Shown: one piece after another, positions 1,557 to 18,555 of the stretch
How positions within the stretch are numbered: position 1 is the stretch's first letter
Layout: every line of letters begins with the position of its first letter
DNA from: a virus
Virus record (IMG/VR): IMGVR_UViG_3300035181_001203
Coordinates: 1-64,000 of that record
Length of the DNA: 64,000 nt
Reading direction: 5' to 3' (one strand)
The notes under the pieces: generated by a model
The model's input: the letters and a program-made list of their open reading frames with translations, nothing else
Databases searched by the model: none
What the model was told of the DNA's origin: nothing
Made by a program: the position numbers and the translations under genes

Positions 1557-3319
1557 AGTGAACCAAGATTATAACTAATATTATCCAAAGCAAAAATAGC
1601 TTGGGTTAATTGCGTTTCATCTATATTGAATAAAGTACGATTCATACGTTTAATGATTAATAGTTTACATAGACGATCTAACATTTCATATAGATCAGGA
1701 ATTAAAAGTTTAAATCGTTTAATATTATTATAAGTAACAAGATTTAAACCTAAAGCTAAGTCAATATTAGACTTATCGCCACTTGCTAAAGCTACTTTTA
1801 AAAGATCTGAATCTTCTGTAATTTTATTAATTACTGATGCCATTTTAGTTAATTTTTCATCTTTAACTTCTTCTTTACTTTCTTTTGCATTCCCTTGGAA
1901 AGTATAAACACCATCTTTTTCTGCATTCATTAAAGCATATCTAGCATCATCATGAGATAAGCCACATCTTACTAAAACGACTATTGCATCATTTTTACCT
2001 AAATCTTTTAATTTAGTACTATCAATACCACTAATTCCCGCATCATTAATAGTAAATTTATTATTAAGCTGTTTTGTAATCTTAACTGTCAAACCAGCAT
2101 TTTTAATTACGTCTTCAGGAGTTCTAATCCAATCAGCATGCATATCATCTGGATATACTTTTACTAAATTAGCAAAAGATGAAATTAAATAATTTTTAGG
2201 ATCTAAAGGTATAATTGTTTTAATATCAGAAGAAGTTCTAAGATTAATATTATCAAGAGAATCAGTTAATACGGAATAAATTTTATCTCCACCCATATTG
2301 GATATACTATTAATATAGAATGGACCATAAAAATTATCGCCAATAACAATACCAGCATAATCACCAGCTTTGGCTTGTTCAGTATGAATTTCCATTCCTC
2401 CATCTTGGTTTTCTCTTGCAACTAAAGAACCCATATATCGTGGCAAATATTTACCACATTCTGTTATAATAATATTGCTATCAGTGGAATTATTTTTTTC
2501 GGTTAAAGAAGATAATCTAAAATGATTAAATGAACGAGCTTTAACATACTCTCCATTTATATCAACAAATCCTATTCTATTTTTAGTTTGTTTAAAATTA
2601 TTTTTTAACTCTTTTTTATCTATCTCTAATACAACTTTAGGAGGCATGCTTGAAATAATCATATCTTTATCATACATTAATTTTGTAACAACTTCTTTTC
2701 CAAACTTTTTAGCAAATTCAGATAATTTATATTCTACGTCTGGATTTTTAATATCTCTTACAACTATTGGTTTATTAGAAGAAGCTTCTTTAATAAATAC
2801 TCTAGCTACATACTCTTCGTCATTACTTGGAATATTTCTATTACAAAATTCTTCAATAATTTCAGGGTATTCTTCAGCAATCTTCTGAAGAGTATCTTTA
2901 TGTTTTTCAATAAAATTAATTTTGATATCGCCTGTATCCTCAAAAAGCGATGCCGTTTTAAGAAGTTGTCCCCTTTCAGATTGGGATACAAGTTTAAAAG
3001 GCCACGTTCGTTTTTCTATTAGATTAATGGAATTCTCTGTTAGTGGCAGATACTTCCCATTGTCAATATAAATATCTAATGGATTTAACTCGTATTCATC
3101 AATAATAAAAGGAATACGTTGTGGCTTTCCAATCATAGAGATATAGCCTACGGCATTTCCTTTGATTGGATCAACTTTGGCAAATGTTACATCGCCAACC
3201 AATTTTGAAAGCGTCGGAAATTTGGAAATCAGATGATTTACAATCTGATCACCCCAAGAATTAGAATCCGATGTTAAACGGACACTAGTGTTAACGGAAA
3301 ATAAATCGCTTAATGACAT
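1553..3319 (-). CDS. Putative virion/head protein rich in KxA motifs
   Basis: Likely start ATG 3319 (GGAG upstream). Contains LLKTAS, LQKIAE, FIKEAS, VIKNAG, LTKMAS, LLKVAL. Confidence 0.55.
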   Translation of the reverse strand: MSLSDLFSVNTSVRLTSDSNSWGDQIVNHLISKFPTLSKLVGDVTFAKVDPIKGNAVGYISMIGKPQRIPFIIDEYELNPLDIYIDNGKYLPLTENSINLIEKRTWPFKLVSQSERGQLLKTASLFEDTGDIKINFIEKHKDTLQKIAEEYPEIIEEFCNRNIPSNDEEYVARVFIKEASSNKPIVVRDIKNPDVEYKLSEFAKKFGKEVVTKLMYDKDMIISSMPPKVVLEIDKKELKNNFKQTKNRIGFVDINGEYVKARSFNHFRLSSLTEKNNSTDSNIIITECGKYLPRYMGSLVARENQDGGMEIHTEQAKAGDYAGIVIGDNFYGPFYINSISNMGGDKIYSVLTDSLDNINLRTSSDIKTIIPLDPKNYLISSFANLVKVYPDDMHADWIRTPEDVIKNAGLTVKITKQLNNKFTINDAGISGIDSTKLKDLGKNDAIVVLVRCGLSHDDARYALMNAEKDGVYTFQGNAKESKEEVKDEKLTKMASVINKITEDSDLLKVALASGDKSNIDLALGLNLVTYNNIKRFKLLIPDLYEMLDRLCKLLIIKRMNRTLFNIDETQLTQAIFALDNISYNLGSL

Positions 3320-13419: not shown

Positions 13420-13786
13420 TTGTAGATACTCCAGTAGATGTATCGCTCAATGCTCTAAGAGAAATCATACTATTTTGTATTGATAAAGTAATTGCATCGC
13501 CCCAAAGTTTAGCTCGTTTTTGTAGATCTGCAAGCTGTAGGGTATCATCTTGAAATAATGCTCTGACAACTCCGACAGTATAAAAAGCAACGGGATCGCC
13601 AGCGGTTACTTTAAATTTGGGATAGGTCAGATCCAGGGGATCACCAAACTGACCTGAAGGATTTATTTCTATATCACCAAATTTTTGAATTAATGCATCA
13701 TCAGCAGCATCCTTGGCGACAAGTCTAATTTCTACGCTAATGCCACCATCAATTAATTTAGTTGTTCTCTGAATTGAGGAAGCCAT
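13409..13786 (-). CDS. Hypothetical (probably structural) protein
   Basis: 125-aa ORF coupled to the sigma gene (TAATG). Confidence 0.6.
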   Translation of the reverse strand: MASSIQRTTKLIDGGISVEIRLVAKDAADDALIQKFGDIEINPSGQFGDPLDLTYPKFKVTAGDPVAFYTVGVVRALFQDDTLQLADLQKRAKLWGDAITLSIQNSMISLRALSDTSTGVSTIVI

Positions 13787-14454
13787 TATTTGAACCTCTT
13801 AGCAAGCGAAGTCTTTAAGCGGGAGACTTCGTATGGTTTCATTTTAAATTTCTTACCAAACTCTTGTGGAGATAAAATTTCCGCACCACCAAAACCAGTT
13901 AATGAATCAAATTGTTTTTGTTCTTTTTTATTCATTTGATTTCTAACGGAAAAAATTCTATCGCTCATTTTACTATCAGTATTAGTTGCATTAGTTTGAA
14001 ATTCTGTATCTGAATCATTAATTAAATCTGCCCTATTGTTATGAATAATACGTTCAATATGACTTTGTGGTAAATGCATATAATCTGATAAATCTTCTAC
14101 TGTAGGTTCTCTTCCTAATTCATCACTTAAGTATGCTTTAGCTTGATTTAATCTGCCTAGCTGTTGTATCTGATGCTCAGGGACGCTACTAGCATTCTGA
14201 TGTAAATAGATAAGTCTAGATAGTTGAGAAATATGATTATATAAGTGAGTATTGATTGCTGCTTTTTCTGGATCAAAGGTTTTGAATGCTTCTAAAGCAT
14301 AATGATTACCATATGTAGTAAGCACCGCATCTGGTATAATTCCTCTCCATTTATTAATATTTGCTTTTATGTATGGAGAATATGCATCGAGCAGAAGTTG
14401 CCCGTTTTCTTTTGTTGGATTTTTTTGGTATTGTAAAATAAGTTCATTTGACAT
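13786..14454 (-). CDS. Phage sigma70-family sigma factor (group 3/FliA-like)
   Basis: Region 2 EAFKTFDPEKAAINTHLY, region 3 LSDELGREPTVEDLSDYM, region 4 HTH LSPQEFGKKFKMKPYEVSRL. Confidence 0.88.
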   Translation of the reverse strand: MSNELILQYQKNPTKENGQLLLDAYSPYIKANINKWRGIIPDAVLTTYGNHYALEAFKTFDPEKAAINTHLYNHISQLSRLIYLHQNASSVPEHQIQQLGRLNQAKAYLSDELGREPTVEDLSDYMHLPQSHIERIIHNNRADLINDSDTEFQTNATNTDSKMSDRIFSVRNQMNKKEQKQFDSLTGFGGAEILSPQEFGKKFKMKPYEVSRLKTSLAKRFK

Positions 14455-15289: not shown

Positions 15290-15853
15290 ATGGATCTTCT
15301 GATAATGGAAAAATATTTAAGAAATAGAGATAATATGCATTATTCATTAGGTTTTAATATTTTGAAGCCACAATATAAAATTACTTATTGGAAATTTTGG
15401 ACTCATGTTCTTAACCCTCGCACATACTGGCGATTGGTAAAGAATTTTTGTTATCGTGGATTTTATGGATATTCAAAAGAAGATTATTGGGATGGTGAAA
15501 GTTATCTAGAATCAGTAATCTATGGAATTATTAAAGATCTTCGAGAAAATCATATTAATCATCCATCCAATCTTTCAAATGAATCTTGGAATTCTATTTT
15601 AGATGAAATAATCGAAGGTTTAGAGGCAGCGAGTGAGTTGAGAATGGAAGATACGGTTCCTAAAGGAATCTATTCTGAGGGACCGTGGAAGTTTGTTCCA
15701 TCTGAACATGATCCAAAACTTTTCAAGATAATTGATGAATCAAATCATGTTTTTGACAAAGAAGGTTACGATAAATGGCAAGCTCCTTTACTCAAAAAAA
15801 GAAAAAGAGCAATGCTGTTAATCTGTAAATATTGGTTAAATTTTTGGGATTGA
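15290..15853 (+). CDS. Hypothetical protein within the tRNA cluster
   Basis: 187-aa Trp-rich ORF with phage-like codon usage. Confidence 0.7.
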   Translation: MDLLIMEKYLRNRDNMHYSLGFNILKPQYKITYWKFWTHVLNPRTYWRLVKNFCYRGFYGYSKEDYWDGESYLESVIYGIIKDLRENHINHPSNLSNESWNSILDEIIEGLEAASELRMEDTVPKGIYSEGPWKFVPSEHDPKLFKIIDESNHVFDKEGYDKWQAPLLKKRKRAMLLICKYWLNFWD

Positions 15854-15865
15854 AATTTTTCTCAT

Positions 15866-15940
15866 CCTCCTGTAGCTTAATGGATTGAGCAGCGCCCTTC
15901 TAAGGCGCGGGTCTAGGTTCGATTCCTAGCAGGAGGACCA
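15866..15940 (+). tRNA. tRNA-Arg(TCT)
   Basis: CCTCCTG/CAGGAGG acceptor, GCGCC-CTTCTAA-GGCGC anticodon arm, CCA. Confidence 0.95.
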
Positions 15941-15944
15941 GTTC

Positions 15945-16134
15945 ATTTTGCAATTTTGATACCTGAGCGATTGTAACTCCCCACTATAGGGATAATCACT
16001 TAAGCCCATTGCAATATCGCAATAGTTTTCATGCTAACCGTGTATTCAATCGGGAGGATGACATTGGACTTCGAGACTCCAGACTAGATTTGCAAATGCC
16101 ATGCTTTTGGCTGAGTATCAATTTATTGCAAAAT
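15945..16134 (+). ncRNA. Putative structured RNA, ~190 nt
   Basis: Closing stems ATTTTGCAAT/ATTGCAAAAT and TTGATAC/GTATCAA enclose internal hairpins; no ORF. Confidence 0.45.
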
Positions 16135-16155
16135 ACTATATTTATTTGTTATAAT
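16128..16155 (+). promoter_or_regulatory. Conserved promoter motif GCAA-N15-TGTTATAA (copy 2), driving large ncRNA
   Basis: GCAAAATACTATATTTATTTGTTATAAT; no RBS or ORF follows. Confidence 0.7.
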
Positions 16156-16159
16156 ATAC

Positions 16160-16975
16160 ATGGGAGAGTATAAACTTTGGAATATTATGGTCTAGGTTTC
16201 GTCAACCTAGTTAATACCTCGATGACAGAGCTATAGAGTCCCACTTTCTGCGGAATTGTGGATTGGCTTTATAGATGAATGGGGAGCCATAATAACCACG
16301 GAATATACTTTCCATAAAGTTTGAAGAGTTCTTTTCAAAAACTCTGTGTTTGGCGGTAGATGAATGACCGTTCCCCTCATAATAGCTTGATTGGGGTTAT
16401 GAGAATGCTGAAGATCAAGCGTTTGACCGTATCGAATAACGGTCTTGTGATTCCCCACAAATAAACAAGAGGGAGCCACCGCTAGGGCTTGCCGTGTTGA
16501 CAAGCGCGCTACTAGGTGGACAAGCAAGTAAAACACATAAGGTGTTGGTCTGCTTACCACAGACTACGGGTTAAAGAATTCCCGTTAAACTTGCAACAGC
16601 CATATATAGATAGGTCTATCGGCGGATAGGTTTATCGAAAATATGGCTCAACTAGTTCAGTCTCGCAAACTGAATTAGTTGCCAGGGCTTGCTAATTAGG
16701 GACGCCTAATAGCAAGAACCTGGGAAACGTTTATCAGTGGCGATTCACTGATGGGTTAAGAAGTTAGCCTGTAAGACCTTTCTATTCTAACGAATAGTAG
16801 GCAAAAAAACTTCAGATACCAACGCCAAGCCTACCTCATCAGGCCGCGTTGAAAATATGGATGAGGGAGTTGCCGGACCTAATAGAAACCGGATAGGGAT
16901 AAGTGCATTTAGAGTTGCAACTCTAAGCCCGAACATATTAAGCCCGAGCAAATGCAAATACTCGGGCGCTTTTCT
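16160..16975 (+). ncRNA. Large multi-domain structured ncRNA, ~810 nt, unassigned
   Basis: Visibly GC-richer than coding DNA, nested long-range helices, many hairpins, own promoter, 3' hairpin plus U-rich tail. Confidence 0.7.
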
Positions 16976-17094
16976 GAAAGGATCACTTCGGAGCTAGTAC
17001 AATCATCGGATTGTATTAATTCCATACCCGGAAGTGATCCTTTGAGAGAAGAATTTTTAAAAATCAAGTTTTCAACGTAAAGAATAATAATAAT

Positions 17095-17182
17095 GCGGCT
17101 GTGGCGGAATCGGTAGACGCTACAGACTTAAAATCTGTCGTAGGTAAACTACATGCCGGTTCGAGTCCGGCCAGCCGCACCA
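17095..17182 (+). tRNA. tRNA-Leu(TAA)
   Basis: GCGGCTG/CAGCCGC acceptor, ACAGA-CTTAAAA-TCTGT, long variable arm, CCA. Confidence 0.95.
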
Positions 17183-17195
17183 AAAAATACACCAA

Positions 17196-17700
17196 GGATT
17201 GAGAGCTTGCTTAAATGCAAATCTACGGATGCTCGAAACTGATCGTCAATGGTGGTAGCCCGATAAGATTAACTCGGGCAAACTTCACGTTCTCAATTCC
17301 AAGTCTGACGAACGGAAGTGTAATGACTTGGGTAAGGTCCACGCACTTTAAGACCTTTGGGGGTAGGGACAAGTGGATTAAAACCCCTCGTGCAAGTTTG
17401 GGAGACTGTAAAGATGCTTAAGGCATCTGTAAGCTGATTCAAAGGCCCTTGAGTAAAGGCTGTAATTTAATGGAAGCGCGGCATCCATTTTAGTTTCGTA
17501 AGGGGGGAGCGAAAGCTGAGAACCTTGTGCGAGATATGCCGATTAACAAGAAAGGTAGCCTAAGCTTATAAGTTAAGACCACTTCCAGGGTGCAAGGCTC
17601 TGGCTTGCATTAATGCAGACATTAAGTAGGCGTTTCATGAAACGCACAACTTAATACCGATAAAAGTTCTGCAATAGCCAATCAATTCGGTGATATTGGC
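17196..17700 (+). ncRNA. Large structured ncRNA, ~510 nt, between tRNA-Leu and tRNA-Lys, unassigned
   Basis: Multiple helices plus a long-range loop pairing GGAAGTG/CACTTCC; no credible ORF. Confidence 0.65.
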
Positions 17701-17709
17701 AAACTTTAT

Positions 17710-17786
17710 GGAACCTTAGCTCAGTTGGTTAGAGCATCTGACTTTTAATCAGAGGGTGCCGGGTTCGATTCCCGGAGGTTCCACCA
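17710..17786 (+). tRNA. tRNA-Lys(TTT)
   Basis: GGAACCT/AGGTTCC acceptor, TCTGA-CTTTTAA-TCAGA, CCA. Confidence 0.95.
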
Positions 17787-17788
17787 AT

Positions 17789-18123
17789 AACCAAGTGTCC
17801 TGCATTCCAGGACTCGATATGCATAATCGCAGCTTGGTTTTTCGGAGAAGAGACTTACCGTGAGGAAGTCAACAAACTGGTGTTAAGGGATTACACCTTC
17901 TCCGAATAGAATCGCTATTAAATTCTGGTGAAGATTTAATAGCAAGCTTGTTGTCTGCTAGTGGCAACTGAAAAAACTCTTCTTACAGGAAGAGTTTAAA
18001 CTAGCTATCAAATCCTGGTTATTAGGAATGACAAAAAGGTGTAGTCTGACAGCTACATTCCCACAAATCATTCGCCTTGTCAGGGGAAACCGAAATCAAT
18101 ATGATTTCCGGCAGGATTTGATA
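17789..18123 (+). ncRNA. Series of small structured RNA elements
   Basis: Closed domains at 17789-17839, 17841-17906 and 18006-18123, plus three simple hairpins. Confidence 0.5.
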
Positions 18124-18142
18124 TACTAACAGAATATCACTT

Positions 18143-18218
18143 GCGCCTATAGCTCAGCGGTCAGAGCTGGCGGCTCATAACCGCTTGGTCCTAGGTTCGA
18201 ATCCTAGTAGGCGCACCA
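18143..18218 (+). tRNA. tRNA with CAT anticodon (probably Ile2/lysidine type; elongator Met not excluded)
   Basis: GCGCCTA/TAGGCGC acceptor, GGCGG-CTCATAA-CCGCT; paired 1:72, so not an initiator. Confidence 0.9.
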
Positions 18219-18299: not shown

Positions 18300-18375
18300 T
18301 GGGGGGTGGCGGAGTGGTTAACGCGGCAGACTTTGACTCTGTTTTTCCTAGGTTCGAGTCCTAGCCCCCCAACCA
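18300..18375 (+). tRNA. tRNA-Gln(TTG)
   Basis: TGGGGGG/CCCCCCA acceptor, GCAGA-CTTTGAC-TCTGT, CCA. Confidence 0.93.
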
Positions 18376-18520
18376 ACAACGCAAGCGGTAATTGTTATCA
18401 ACGTTTGTGGGCATCGTATAAACCTTCTTTTTTTTAATTTTCTATATAGATGAAACGTGTTCTCAAGTAAACAGCATTCATTTATTAAAGCTTATGAAGA
18501 ATCAAACATTCATGAAGCAT

Positions 18521-18555
18521 AAAAAAGGCCCCGAAAGGGGCCTTCTCTTTTTTTT
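18521..18555. terminator. Bidirectional intrinsic terminator
   Basis: A6-GGCCCC-GAAA-GGGGCC-TTCTCTTTTTTTT between the convergent RNA island and tail genes. Confidence 0.85.

Follow-up and report, generated by a model that had tools for sequence, protein, structure and literature searches.

A candidate new family of large, modular structured RNA in the tRNA island of uncultured phages

What is encoded in the G+C-rich, ORF-poor DNA between tRNA-Arg(UCU) and tRNA-Leu(UAA) in the tRNA island of an uncultured phage, and does it belong to any RNA family already known? The DNA analysed here, referred to as the window, is the first 64 kb (64,000 nucleotides) of a 112,653-bp IMG/VR virus record with an estimated completeness of ~72%. 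The phage genome has a G+C content of ~30% and encodes a 1,993-residue fused beta-beta' RNA polymerase, a sigma factor and tail genes. The nearest GenBank phages (Salmonella phage Arash and Vibrio phages D69, D148 and D181) are only 32-33% identical. The RNA island lies on the + strand with - strand genes on either side, and consists, in order, of tRNA-Ser, tRNA-Arg(UCU), the candidate RNA, tRNA-Leu(UAA), tRNA-Lys, tRNA-Met and tRNA-Gln, as identified by ARAGORN and Rfam (Table 1). A strong terminator is first seen at 18525-18544, beyond the candidate RNA. The candidate region has a G+C content of 42%, compared with ~30% elsewhere, within a stretch of 42-43% over 16-18 kb; its ORFs are few and short, and none has a family match. 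The gaps between tRNAs at 17196-17700, 17786-18143 and 18375-18525 are likewise G+C-rich and ORF-poor, and these remaining gaps probably hold more structured RNAs or swapped cassettes.

The initial annotation, made from the sequence, proposed that the + strand encodes a large and ornate RNA without coding function, driven by a promoter of its own. This proposal holds: two homologues carry many compensatory changes, and the promoter is kept in all three phages. The promoter is of the sigma70 type, with a -35 element TTGCAA (16126-31), an 18-nt spacer and a TG-extended TATAAT (16150-55), and the same -35, spacer and extended -10 stand in front of the RNA in both homologues. Transcription would start near 16160-16163, and the candidate RNA measures ~810 nt from promoter to last helix. 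We infer the promoter, both ends of the RNA and its status as a single transcript from these sequence features. Across 836 nt, the minimum free energy (MFE) is -280.5 kcal/mol, with a z-score of -6.9 against dinucleotide shuffles, and the + strand fold is favoured over that of the - strand by 22 kcal/mol. The curated helices of the window contain 147 pairs, namely 138 Watson-Crick pairs, eight G-U pairs and one mismatch. Read from the - strand, the eight G-U pairs would turn into A-C mismatches; together with the promoter, they fix the + strand, as the earlier remark on G-U pairs had anticipated. All complementarities quoted in the initial annotation exist, exactly or displaced by 1-3 nt.

Table 1 Positions of the genes, signals, modules and helices discussed in the text, in window coordinates
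Feature	Position	Strand	Remarks
Single-chain beta-beta' RNA polymerase, 1,993 aa	3592-9573	-	
Phage sigma factor gene	13786-14454	-	
tRNA-Arg(UCU)	15866-15940	+	ARAGORN, Rfam; upstream neighbour in all three phages
Sigma70-type promoter	16126-16155	+	Consensus scan, 10/12 matches plus TG; predicted
D1, variable 5' domain, multi-branch	16163-16313	+	MFE; closed by a 10-bp helix, 16163-72/16304-13, with one G-U
X, optional 129-nt insert of hairpins	16316-16444	+	In L003, absent from L002
H module	16447-16519	+	Four copies: window, L003, two in L002
H1 hairpin	16451-55/16471-75	+	Invariant
H2, closing helix of H module	16476-80/16515-19	+	4 compensatory pairs
H3, inner hairpin of H module	16487-93/16499-505	+	5 compensatory pairs
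Four-way junction	16524-16594	+	P4 encloses P5, P6 and P7
P4	16524-29/16589-94	+	4 compensatory pairs
P5	16532-36/16542-46	+	2 compensatory pairs
P6	16547-52/16560-65	+	L002 keeps a hairpin of other length
P7	16566-70/16581-85	+	Invariant
P8, long hairpin	16598-16648; outer 16598-605/16641-48, inner 16609-20/16625-36	+	Outer helix: 1 compensatory pair
P9, 13-bp hairpin	16649-16681	+	Conserved loop; 4 compensatory pairs; 97% of cells paired in sequence-only alignment
P10, hairpin	16682-16723; outer 16682-86/16719-23, middle 16688-94/16710-16, inner 16696-700/16705-09	+	1 compensatory pair
P11, 9-bp hairpin	16731-16754	+	L002: 6-bp hairpin of unrelated sequence, same conserved flanks
P12, hairpin at core end	16767-16802; outer 16767-70/16799-802, inner 16782-87/16792-97	+	
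M module, double pseudoknot, 148 nt	16820-16967	+	Four copies: window, two in L003, one in L002; 14 compensatory pairs
PK2	16820-25/16846-51	+	Crosses P1 of M module; 4 compensatory pairs
M-module P1	16834-40/16860-66	+	
M-module P2	16873-76/16889-92	+	
M-module P3x	16896-98/16928-30	+	
M-module P3	16909-15/16920-26	+	Invariant palindromic loop UUGCAA
M-module P4	16942-48/16961-67	+	
PK1	16904-08/16952-56	+	L002 keeps PK1 via 1-nt deletion plus substitution
Window-specific spacer	16969-17060	+	MFE -43 kcal/mol; short U run, long irregular hairpin, U run
tRNA-Leu(UAA)	17095-17182	+	ARAGORN, Rfam; downstream neighbour in all three phages

The homologue search suggested in the initial annotation finds the RNA in two further IMG/VR phages, at the matching locus between tRNA-Arg(UCU) and tRNA-Leu(UAA) and behind the same promoter; both were reached through the neighbouring sigma gene and conserved RNA motifs. 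The first, L003 (an 88.8-kb contig), is 92.6% identical to window 16316-16972 and carries a second copy of 16822-16967 upstream. The second, L002 (a 157-kb contig), is much more divergent, with conserved islands separated by stems that cannot be aligned; three other contigs (L008, L010 and L012) are 100% identical to it. Scans with RNA motifs across viral contigs, metagenomes and species genomes return only the L002 and L003 phages, the remaining hits being fortuitous hairpin similarities in genes or in unrelated DNA. Protein-anchored scans, seeded with the sigma factor, with an alignment of 21 sigma sequences or with the small ORF that precedes the promoter, lead to the same two contigs only. 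The RNA has no blastn match among GenBank phages, and nhmmer detects no extra copy of the H or M module in the 112-kb record. The sigma proteins of these phages are 56-58% identical, and the RNA is far better conserved. In a large protein database, 58 homologues of the sigma factor are found, many of them on contigs 20-170 kb long; the phage clade is therefore much more extensive than it appears in IMG/VR. The RNA is a feature of a small clade of large uncultured phages that bring along a sigma factor and a fused beta-beta' RNA polymerase of their own.

Conservation along the locus is uneven. Between the window and L003, tRNA-Arg(UCU) is 100% identical, and the optional insert X carries no substitution (100% identity), while the next 528 nt carry 40. 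The identity of X and tRNA-Arg beside diverged blocks suggests that these phages have recently recombined within their RNA island. Further downstream, window 17282-17387 is 100% identical to L003 982-877, with diverged flanking sequence. The surroundings of the RNA differ as well. The tRNA island of L003 also includes a tmRNA immediately upstream of tRNA-Arg (2894-3301, -; Rfam 90.9 bits), whose tag peptide, according to ARAGORN, ends in AKAA; at this place the window has a 187-aa ORF (15290-15853) of no known family. Between tRNA-Arg and the RNA promoter, a small conserved ORF is found in L003 (2478-2741, -; 87 aa) and in L002 (4275-4682, -; 136 aa), the two being 40% identical. The window is without this ORF and has instead 185 nt of non-coding, foldable sequence (15941-16125). 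In L002, tRNA-Leu(UAA) is apparently split by a group I intron at 3000-3245 (-), which scores 47.2 bits with Rfam Intron_gpI (E = 2e-9; gathering score 50), and the 5' half of this tRNA aligns to window 17102-17140. A tRNA-Leu(UAA) with an intron is typical of cyanobacteria, so the intron may give a hint at the host.

The fold is tested by comparison of the three phages. Helices were set by coordinates in the window, transferred to L003 by pairwise alignment, and read in L002 between conserved anchors with the arms placed by eye; all pairs were checked by script. Both sides have changed with pairing kept at 35 base pairs in 15 helices, and breaks are few, in a comparison of three genomes that falls short of R-scape-grade statistics and in which many conserved strands are invariant. 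Because the L002 arms were placed by eye, the count was redone on MAFFT alignments made without structure, with controls in which partners were slid by 1-3 columns and with 500 shuffles. In the M module, 90.1% of cells are paired, compared with 25-45% for slid partners, with eight double changes against 0-2, and on most measures none of the 500 shuffles reaches the observed values. The H module with P7 gives 90.9% against 38-56% and six double changes against 0-1, with one shuffle in 500 reaching the observed values on most measures. For the outer helix of P8, P9 and the outer helix of P10, the corresponding values are 95.0% against 18-43% and six against 0-2, with three shuffles in 500, again on most measures. 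As an independent test, the unambiguous alignment of the closer pair of genomes gives the same picture: 40 substitutions separate the window from L003 over 16445-16972, and 15 of them fall in 12 pairs, of which ten remain paired (three via a double change) and two break. Across the three genomes, covariation is consistent and is strong evidence for a folded + strand RNA.

These results also bear on the possibility that the locus holds no RNA gene and is a degenerate coding region or a chance cluster of G+C-rich inverted repeats. The - strand holds a 109-aa ORF in this region (16231-16560), which the near-identical L003 also keeps open. However, a family search gives no match for any ORF overlapping 16160-16975, the L002 copy of the RNA is crossed by no ORF of at least 80 aa, and the substitutions track base-pairing rather than codons. 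This possibility is hardly conceivable, and we are highly confident that 16160-16975 (+) is a real structured non-coding RNA.

The RNA is built as a row of modules, each self-contained, and between phages some of these have moved or been duplicated. In the window, the variable 5' domain D1 is followed by the optional 129-nt insert X, a conserved core of ~355 nt (16447-16802) and the 148-nt M module. The initial annotation had instead drawn three domains, each closed by a long-range helix. Its large folded RNA stands, as does the helix that closes domain 1, in the 10-bp register of D1. The proposed closure of domain 2 (16345-51/16531-37 and 16351-57/16478-84) is rejected, because it overlaps the covarying helices H2 and P5 and its 5' partner region is absent from L002. 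For the closure of domain 3 (16541-49/16818-26), the complementarity is present, but conservation is limited to 5 bp, one of them a compensatory pair, and the helix competes with P5, P6 and PK2, so that as a native pairing it is weakly supported. Long-range pairings from whole-RNA MFE and RNAalifold predictions, such as 16566-74 with 16763-72, involve invariant bases, are broken in L002 and were discarded.

L003 and L002 each have a 5' domain of similar size right after the promoter, with a long closing helix and a sequence unrelated to D1 of the window. As the 5' domains of the three phages are unrelated in sequence, the interior of D1 lies outside the covariation test. In the conserved core, the H module, the junction and P8 to P12 come in the same order in each of the three phages. 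Helices H2 and H3 of the H module covary around conserved internal loops. The invariant H1 hairpin, in a module duplicated in L002, looks like a candidate binding site for an outside partner. Two bacterial-looking metagenome contigs (L005:2230-2410 and L011:310-500) contain a small RNA gene of ~150 nt, composed of a promoter, two tandem hairpins very like H1 and a strong terminator, with HicAB as neighbour in one contig and NUDIX/HIT in the other. This small RNA could have a binding partner in common with the phage RNA, or the similarity could be a coincidence. An H1-like hairpin in a Pseudanabaena genome was also considered as a host element and rejected: it is single-copy there, and the repeats are those of a flanking palindrome.

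Downstream of the junction, five hairpins (P8-P12) are joined by conserved linkers, except that P8, P9 and P10 abut with zero linker, which fits one folded unit. All pairs of P8 are standard, three of them G-U, and L002 has a long hairpin at the same site that is built differently. P9 had been picked out in the initial annotation as a long hairpin (16649-61/16669-81), and it acquires compensatory changes in the other phages. The outer helix of P10 shows a compensatory change between the window and L003; in L002, the hairpin differs in sequence and shares the conserved flanks. P12 has one wobble-compatible change in L003, and the short L002 hairpin begins in the same conserved block.

The M module is a double pseudoknot. 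The two 3' hairpins described in the initial annotation, which correspond to P1 and P4 of this module, are present and covary in the other phages; the loop-to-upstream pseudoknot that it predicted is also present as PK1, and its survival in L002 combines a 1-nt deletion with a matching substitution. The position of the module is not fixed: the window has it at the 3' end, L003 has one copy at each end of the X-core region, and the L002 copy belongs to the 5' half of the RNA. What follows its last hairpin varies too. In the window, a short U run follows (16969-73); in L003, tRNA-Leu begins 6 nt on, without a U run; and in L002 and the upstream L003 copy, further RNA lies 3' of the hairpin. This variation indicates that the last hairpin is a structural part of the double pseudoknot and not clearly a dedicated terminator. 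The spacer between RNA and tRNA-Leu in the window, 127 nt of unrelated sequence, includes a hairpin (16969-75/17045-51 around a 16-bp stem) with a better U run near 17055. This predicted hairpin, absent from L003, is possibly the true terminator or a processing site. The L003 layout, with the last helix 6 nt before tRNA-Leu and no U run, supports a 3' end made by RNase P.

Whether these modules form one molecule is a separate question. No well-supported long-range helix joins them, and they move, duplicate or drop out between phages; being mobile and without a supported inter-module helix, what appears as one 0.8-kb RNA could be several RNAs. The locus would then be an array of separate small or medium-sized RNAs, in which D1, X, the core with its H module, and M are cassettes that phages exchange and that are separated by cleavage of the transcript, as the flanking tRNAs are. 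Each supported helix indeed stays within its module, M shifts position among the window, L003 and L002, H is duplicated in L002, X behaves as an indel, and blocks of 100% identity adjoin blocks of 92% in a mosaic. Set against this are the single conserved promoter-like site, located upstream of D1, the absence of any internal terminator or tRNA-like processing signal among the features found within the RNA, and the constant order of H, junction and P8-P12 among the three phages, in which helices follow one another at a distance of zero nt. We judge such an array unlikely but a serious contender.

The same neighbourhood raises the possibility that the RNA acts in cis, as a structured leader of the tRNA-Leu(UAA) unit that controls read-through, processing or stability of the downstream tRNAs. 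The RNA is always directly upstream of tRNA-Leu(UAA), at a distance of 6 nt in L003, and the promoter would drive the downstream tRNAs as well, because the strong terminator comes only at 18525-18544. Nevertheless, 0.8 kb of covarying structure far exceeds the need of any known tRNA leader, the junction between RNA and tRNA is not conserved (the unrelated spacer of the window contrasts with ~150 nt and a second H module in L002), and Rfam gives no match to T-box or any other leader family. A leader function appears quite unlikely.

The reading that we lean towards, with modest conviction and by analogy with GOLLD and ROOL, is a single structural RNA that acts in trans, as a scaffold or decoy, and is produced along with the tRNAs of the phage. 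Transcription would begin at the RNA's own sigma70-type promoter inside the tRNA island and, to judge from the adjacency of the genes, run on at least partly into the tRNAs. The 3' end would be set by weak termination, by an RNase P cut at the 5' end of tRNA-Leu, or by both, again as adjacency suggests, and the knotted M module would cap it. The freed RNA may then act in trans as a compact RNA particle that serves as scaffold or decoy for a host or phage partner. Self-association is conceivable, since two of the four conserved hairpin loops hold 6-nt palindromes: UUGCAA in P3 of the M module, and GAAUUC in P7, where the palindrome is formed by the loop and its closing C. These palindromic loops, which never vary and so lie outside the covariation test, are a hint at possible self-pairing. 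In its boldest form, the trans-acting reading makes the RNA a third, independent class of giant phage RNA, a self-assembling, symmetric RNA-only particle held together by kissing UUGCAA and GAAUUC loops, with an M-capped 3' end made by RNase P; this we regard as rather unlikely.

The comparison with known families is consistent. Rfam searches at gathering thresholds and at E<=10, covering the window, the 861 nt of the RNA alone with the laxest filters, L002 and L003, find no family that fits the RNA in any copy; in the rest of the scanned DNA they find only tRNAs, the L003 tmRNA and the near-threshold L002 group I intron. Within 16130-16990, Rfam 15 at E<=10 yields nothing apart from a meaningless 14.7-bit snoRNA match. 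At this threshold there is no match to tmRNA, RNase P RNA, 6S, OLE, HEARO, raiA, group I or II introns, riboswitches or T-box, and ARAGORN finds no tmRNA in the window. In directed searches, the GOLLD model RF02032, which describes the 3' region conserved in all members and has 416 positions and a gathering score of 150 bits, gives no match at E<=10 in the whole virus record with 18 candidates scored, and the ROOL model RF03087 (574 positions, gathering score 99.1 bits) gives none with six candidates scored. The initial annotation, which recognised no known family and noted a size and context recalling GOLLD, is right on both counts: the RF02032, RF03087, OLE and intron models are all without a match at E<=10, and an RNA of ~810 nt lies between tRNA-Arg and tRNA-Leu with a 5' domain that differs in all three phages. 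Location, length and a variable 5' half of the GOLLD type are, however, too unspecific for membership. A very divergent GOLLD or ROOL could have escaped Rfam models that are too narrow, and the shared niche, the similar size and a layout with variable 5' and conserved 3' parts as in GOLLD (PMC12286853) speak for it. The empty RF02032 and RF03087 searches, together with the empty all-Rfam scans of the 861 nt and of both homologues, speak against it, and we consider such a relationship very unlikely.

A survey of structured RNAs in IMG/VR describes 8,495 candidates, with motifs of only 29-151 nt (PMC10690425). By sequence comparison, the RNA is a new family, outside every family catalogued in Rfam, of a known kind, the large structured RNAs of phage tRNA islands; it is much longer than the motifs of that survey (PMC10690425), among which a fragment of it may be listed. 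A third unrelated family in phage tRNA islands would suggest that the niche itself selects such RNAs, and it would offer an independent system for asking what giant phage RNAs do, with tRNA protection or delivery, a decoy for host defences and ribosome binding as candidate roles. Large ornate RNAs without a protein partner are very rare, and to our knowledge two phage classes exist, GOLLD and ROOL. The modular evolution is unusual, in that a double-pseudoknot cassette, complete in itself, changes place and is duplicated within the RNA. If a symmetric RNA-only particle were indeed formed, RNA cages would be a convergent, general device of phage tRNA islands. For now, the value of the family is bounded by the few sequences, from three genomes.

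Several known systems resemble parts of this picture. The stable RNAs C and D (species 1 and 2) of the T4 tRNA region are non-tRNA species co-transcribed with tRNAs and freed by tRNA-processing enzymes, and their function is unknown. Like the candidate, they are encoded inside a phage tRNA cluster, but they are simple and only ~120-140 nt long. The 3' ends of the long non-coding RNAs MALAT1 and MEN-beta are cut by RNase P at an adjacent tRNA-shaped element and shielded by a compact 3' tertiary structure. As an analogy only, this is the 3'-end mechanism proposed here for the M module followed by tRNA-Leu, and the L003 layout points to RNase P 3'-end formation that would be a bacterial-virus parallel to MALAT1-type processing. 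The MALAT1 and MEN-beta RNAs are eukaryotic, nuclear and evolutionarily unrelated, and they use a triple helix rather than a double pseudoknot.

The closest parallels are ROOL and GOLLD. ROOL is a phage and prophage RNA of ~580 nt near tRNA islands, with multiple pseudoknots and conserved kissing loops that drive self-assembly (PMC12286853). The candidate is likewise a phage RNA at a tRNA island, with pseudoknots and conserved loops; it differs from ROOL in its larger size and other helix layout and in having no RF03087 match. GOLLD is a phage and prophage RNA of >800 nt, often in or beside tRNA islands, whose 3' part is conserved and whose 5' part is conserved less well (PMC12286853), and it contains many pseudoknots and conserved loops (PMC12286853). 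Both GOLLD and ROOL build RNA-only cages through kissing loops and A-minor contacts, and their function is still unknown (PMC12286853). The candidate is set apart from GOLLD by the lack of an RF02032 match and by self-contained modules that are mobile and sometimes duplicated. In conclusion, what it has in common with GOLLD is a large structured phage RNA in a tRNA island, a variable 5' and a conserved 3' part, pseudoknots, and conserved loops.
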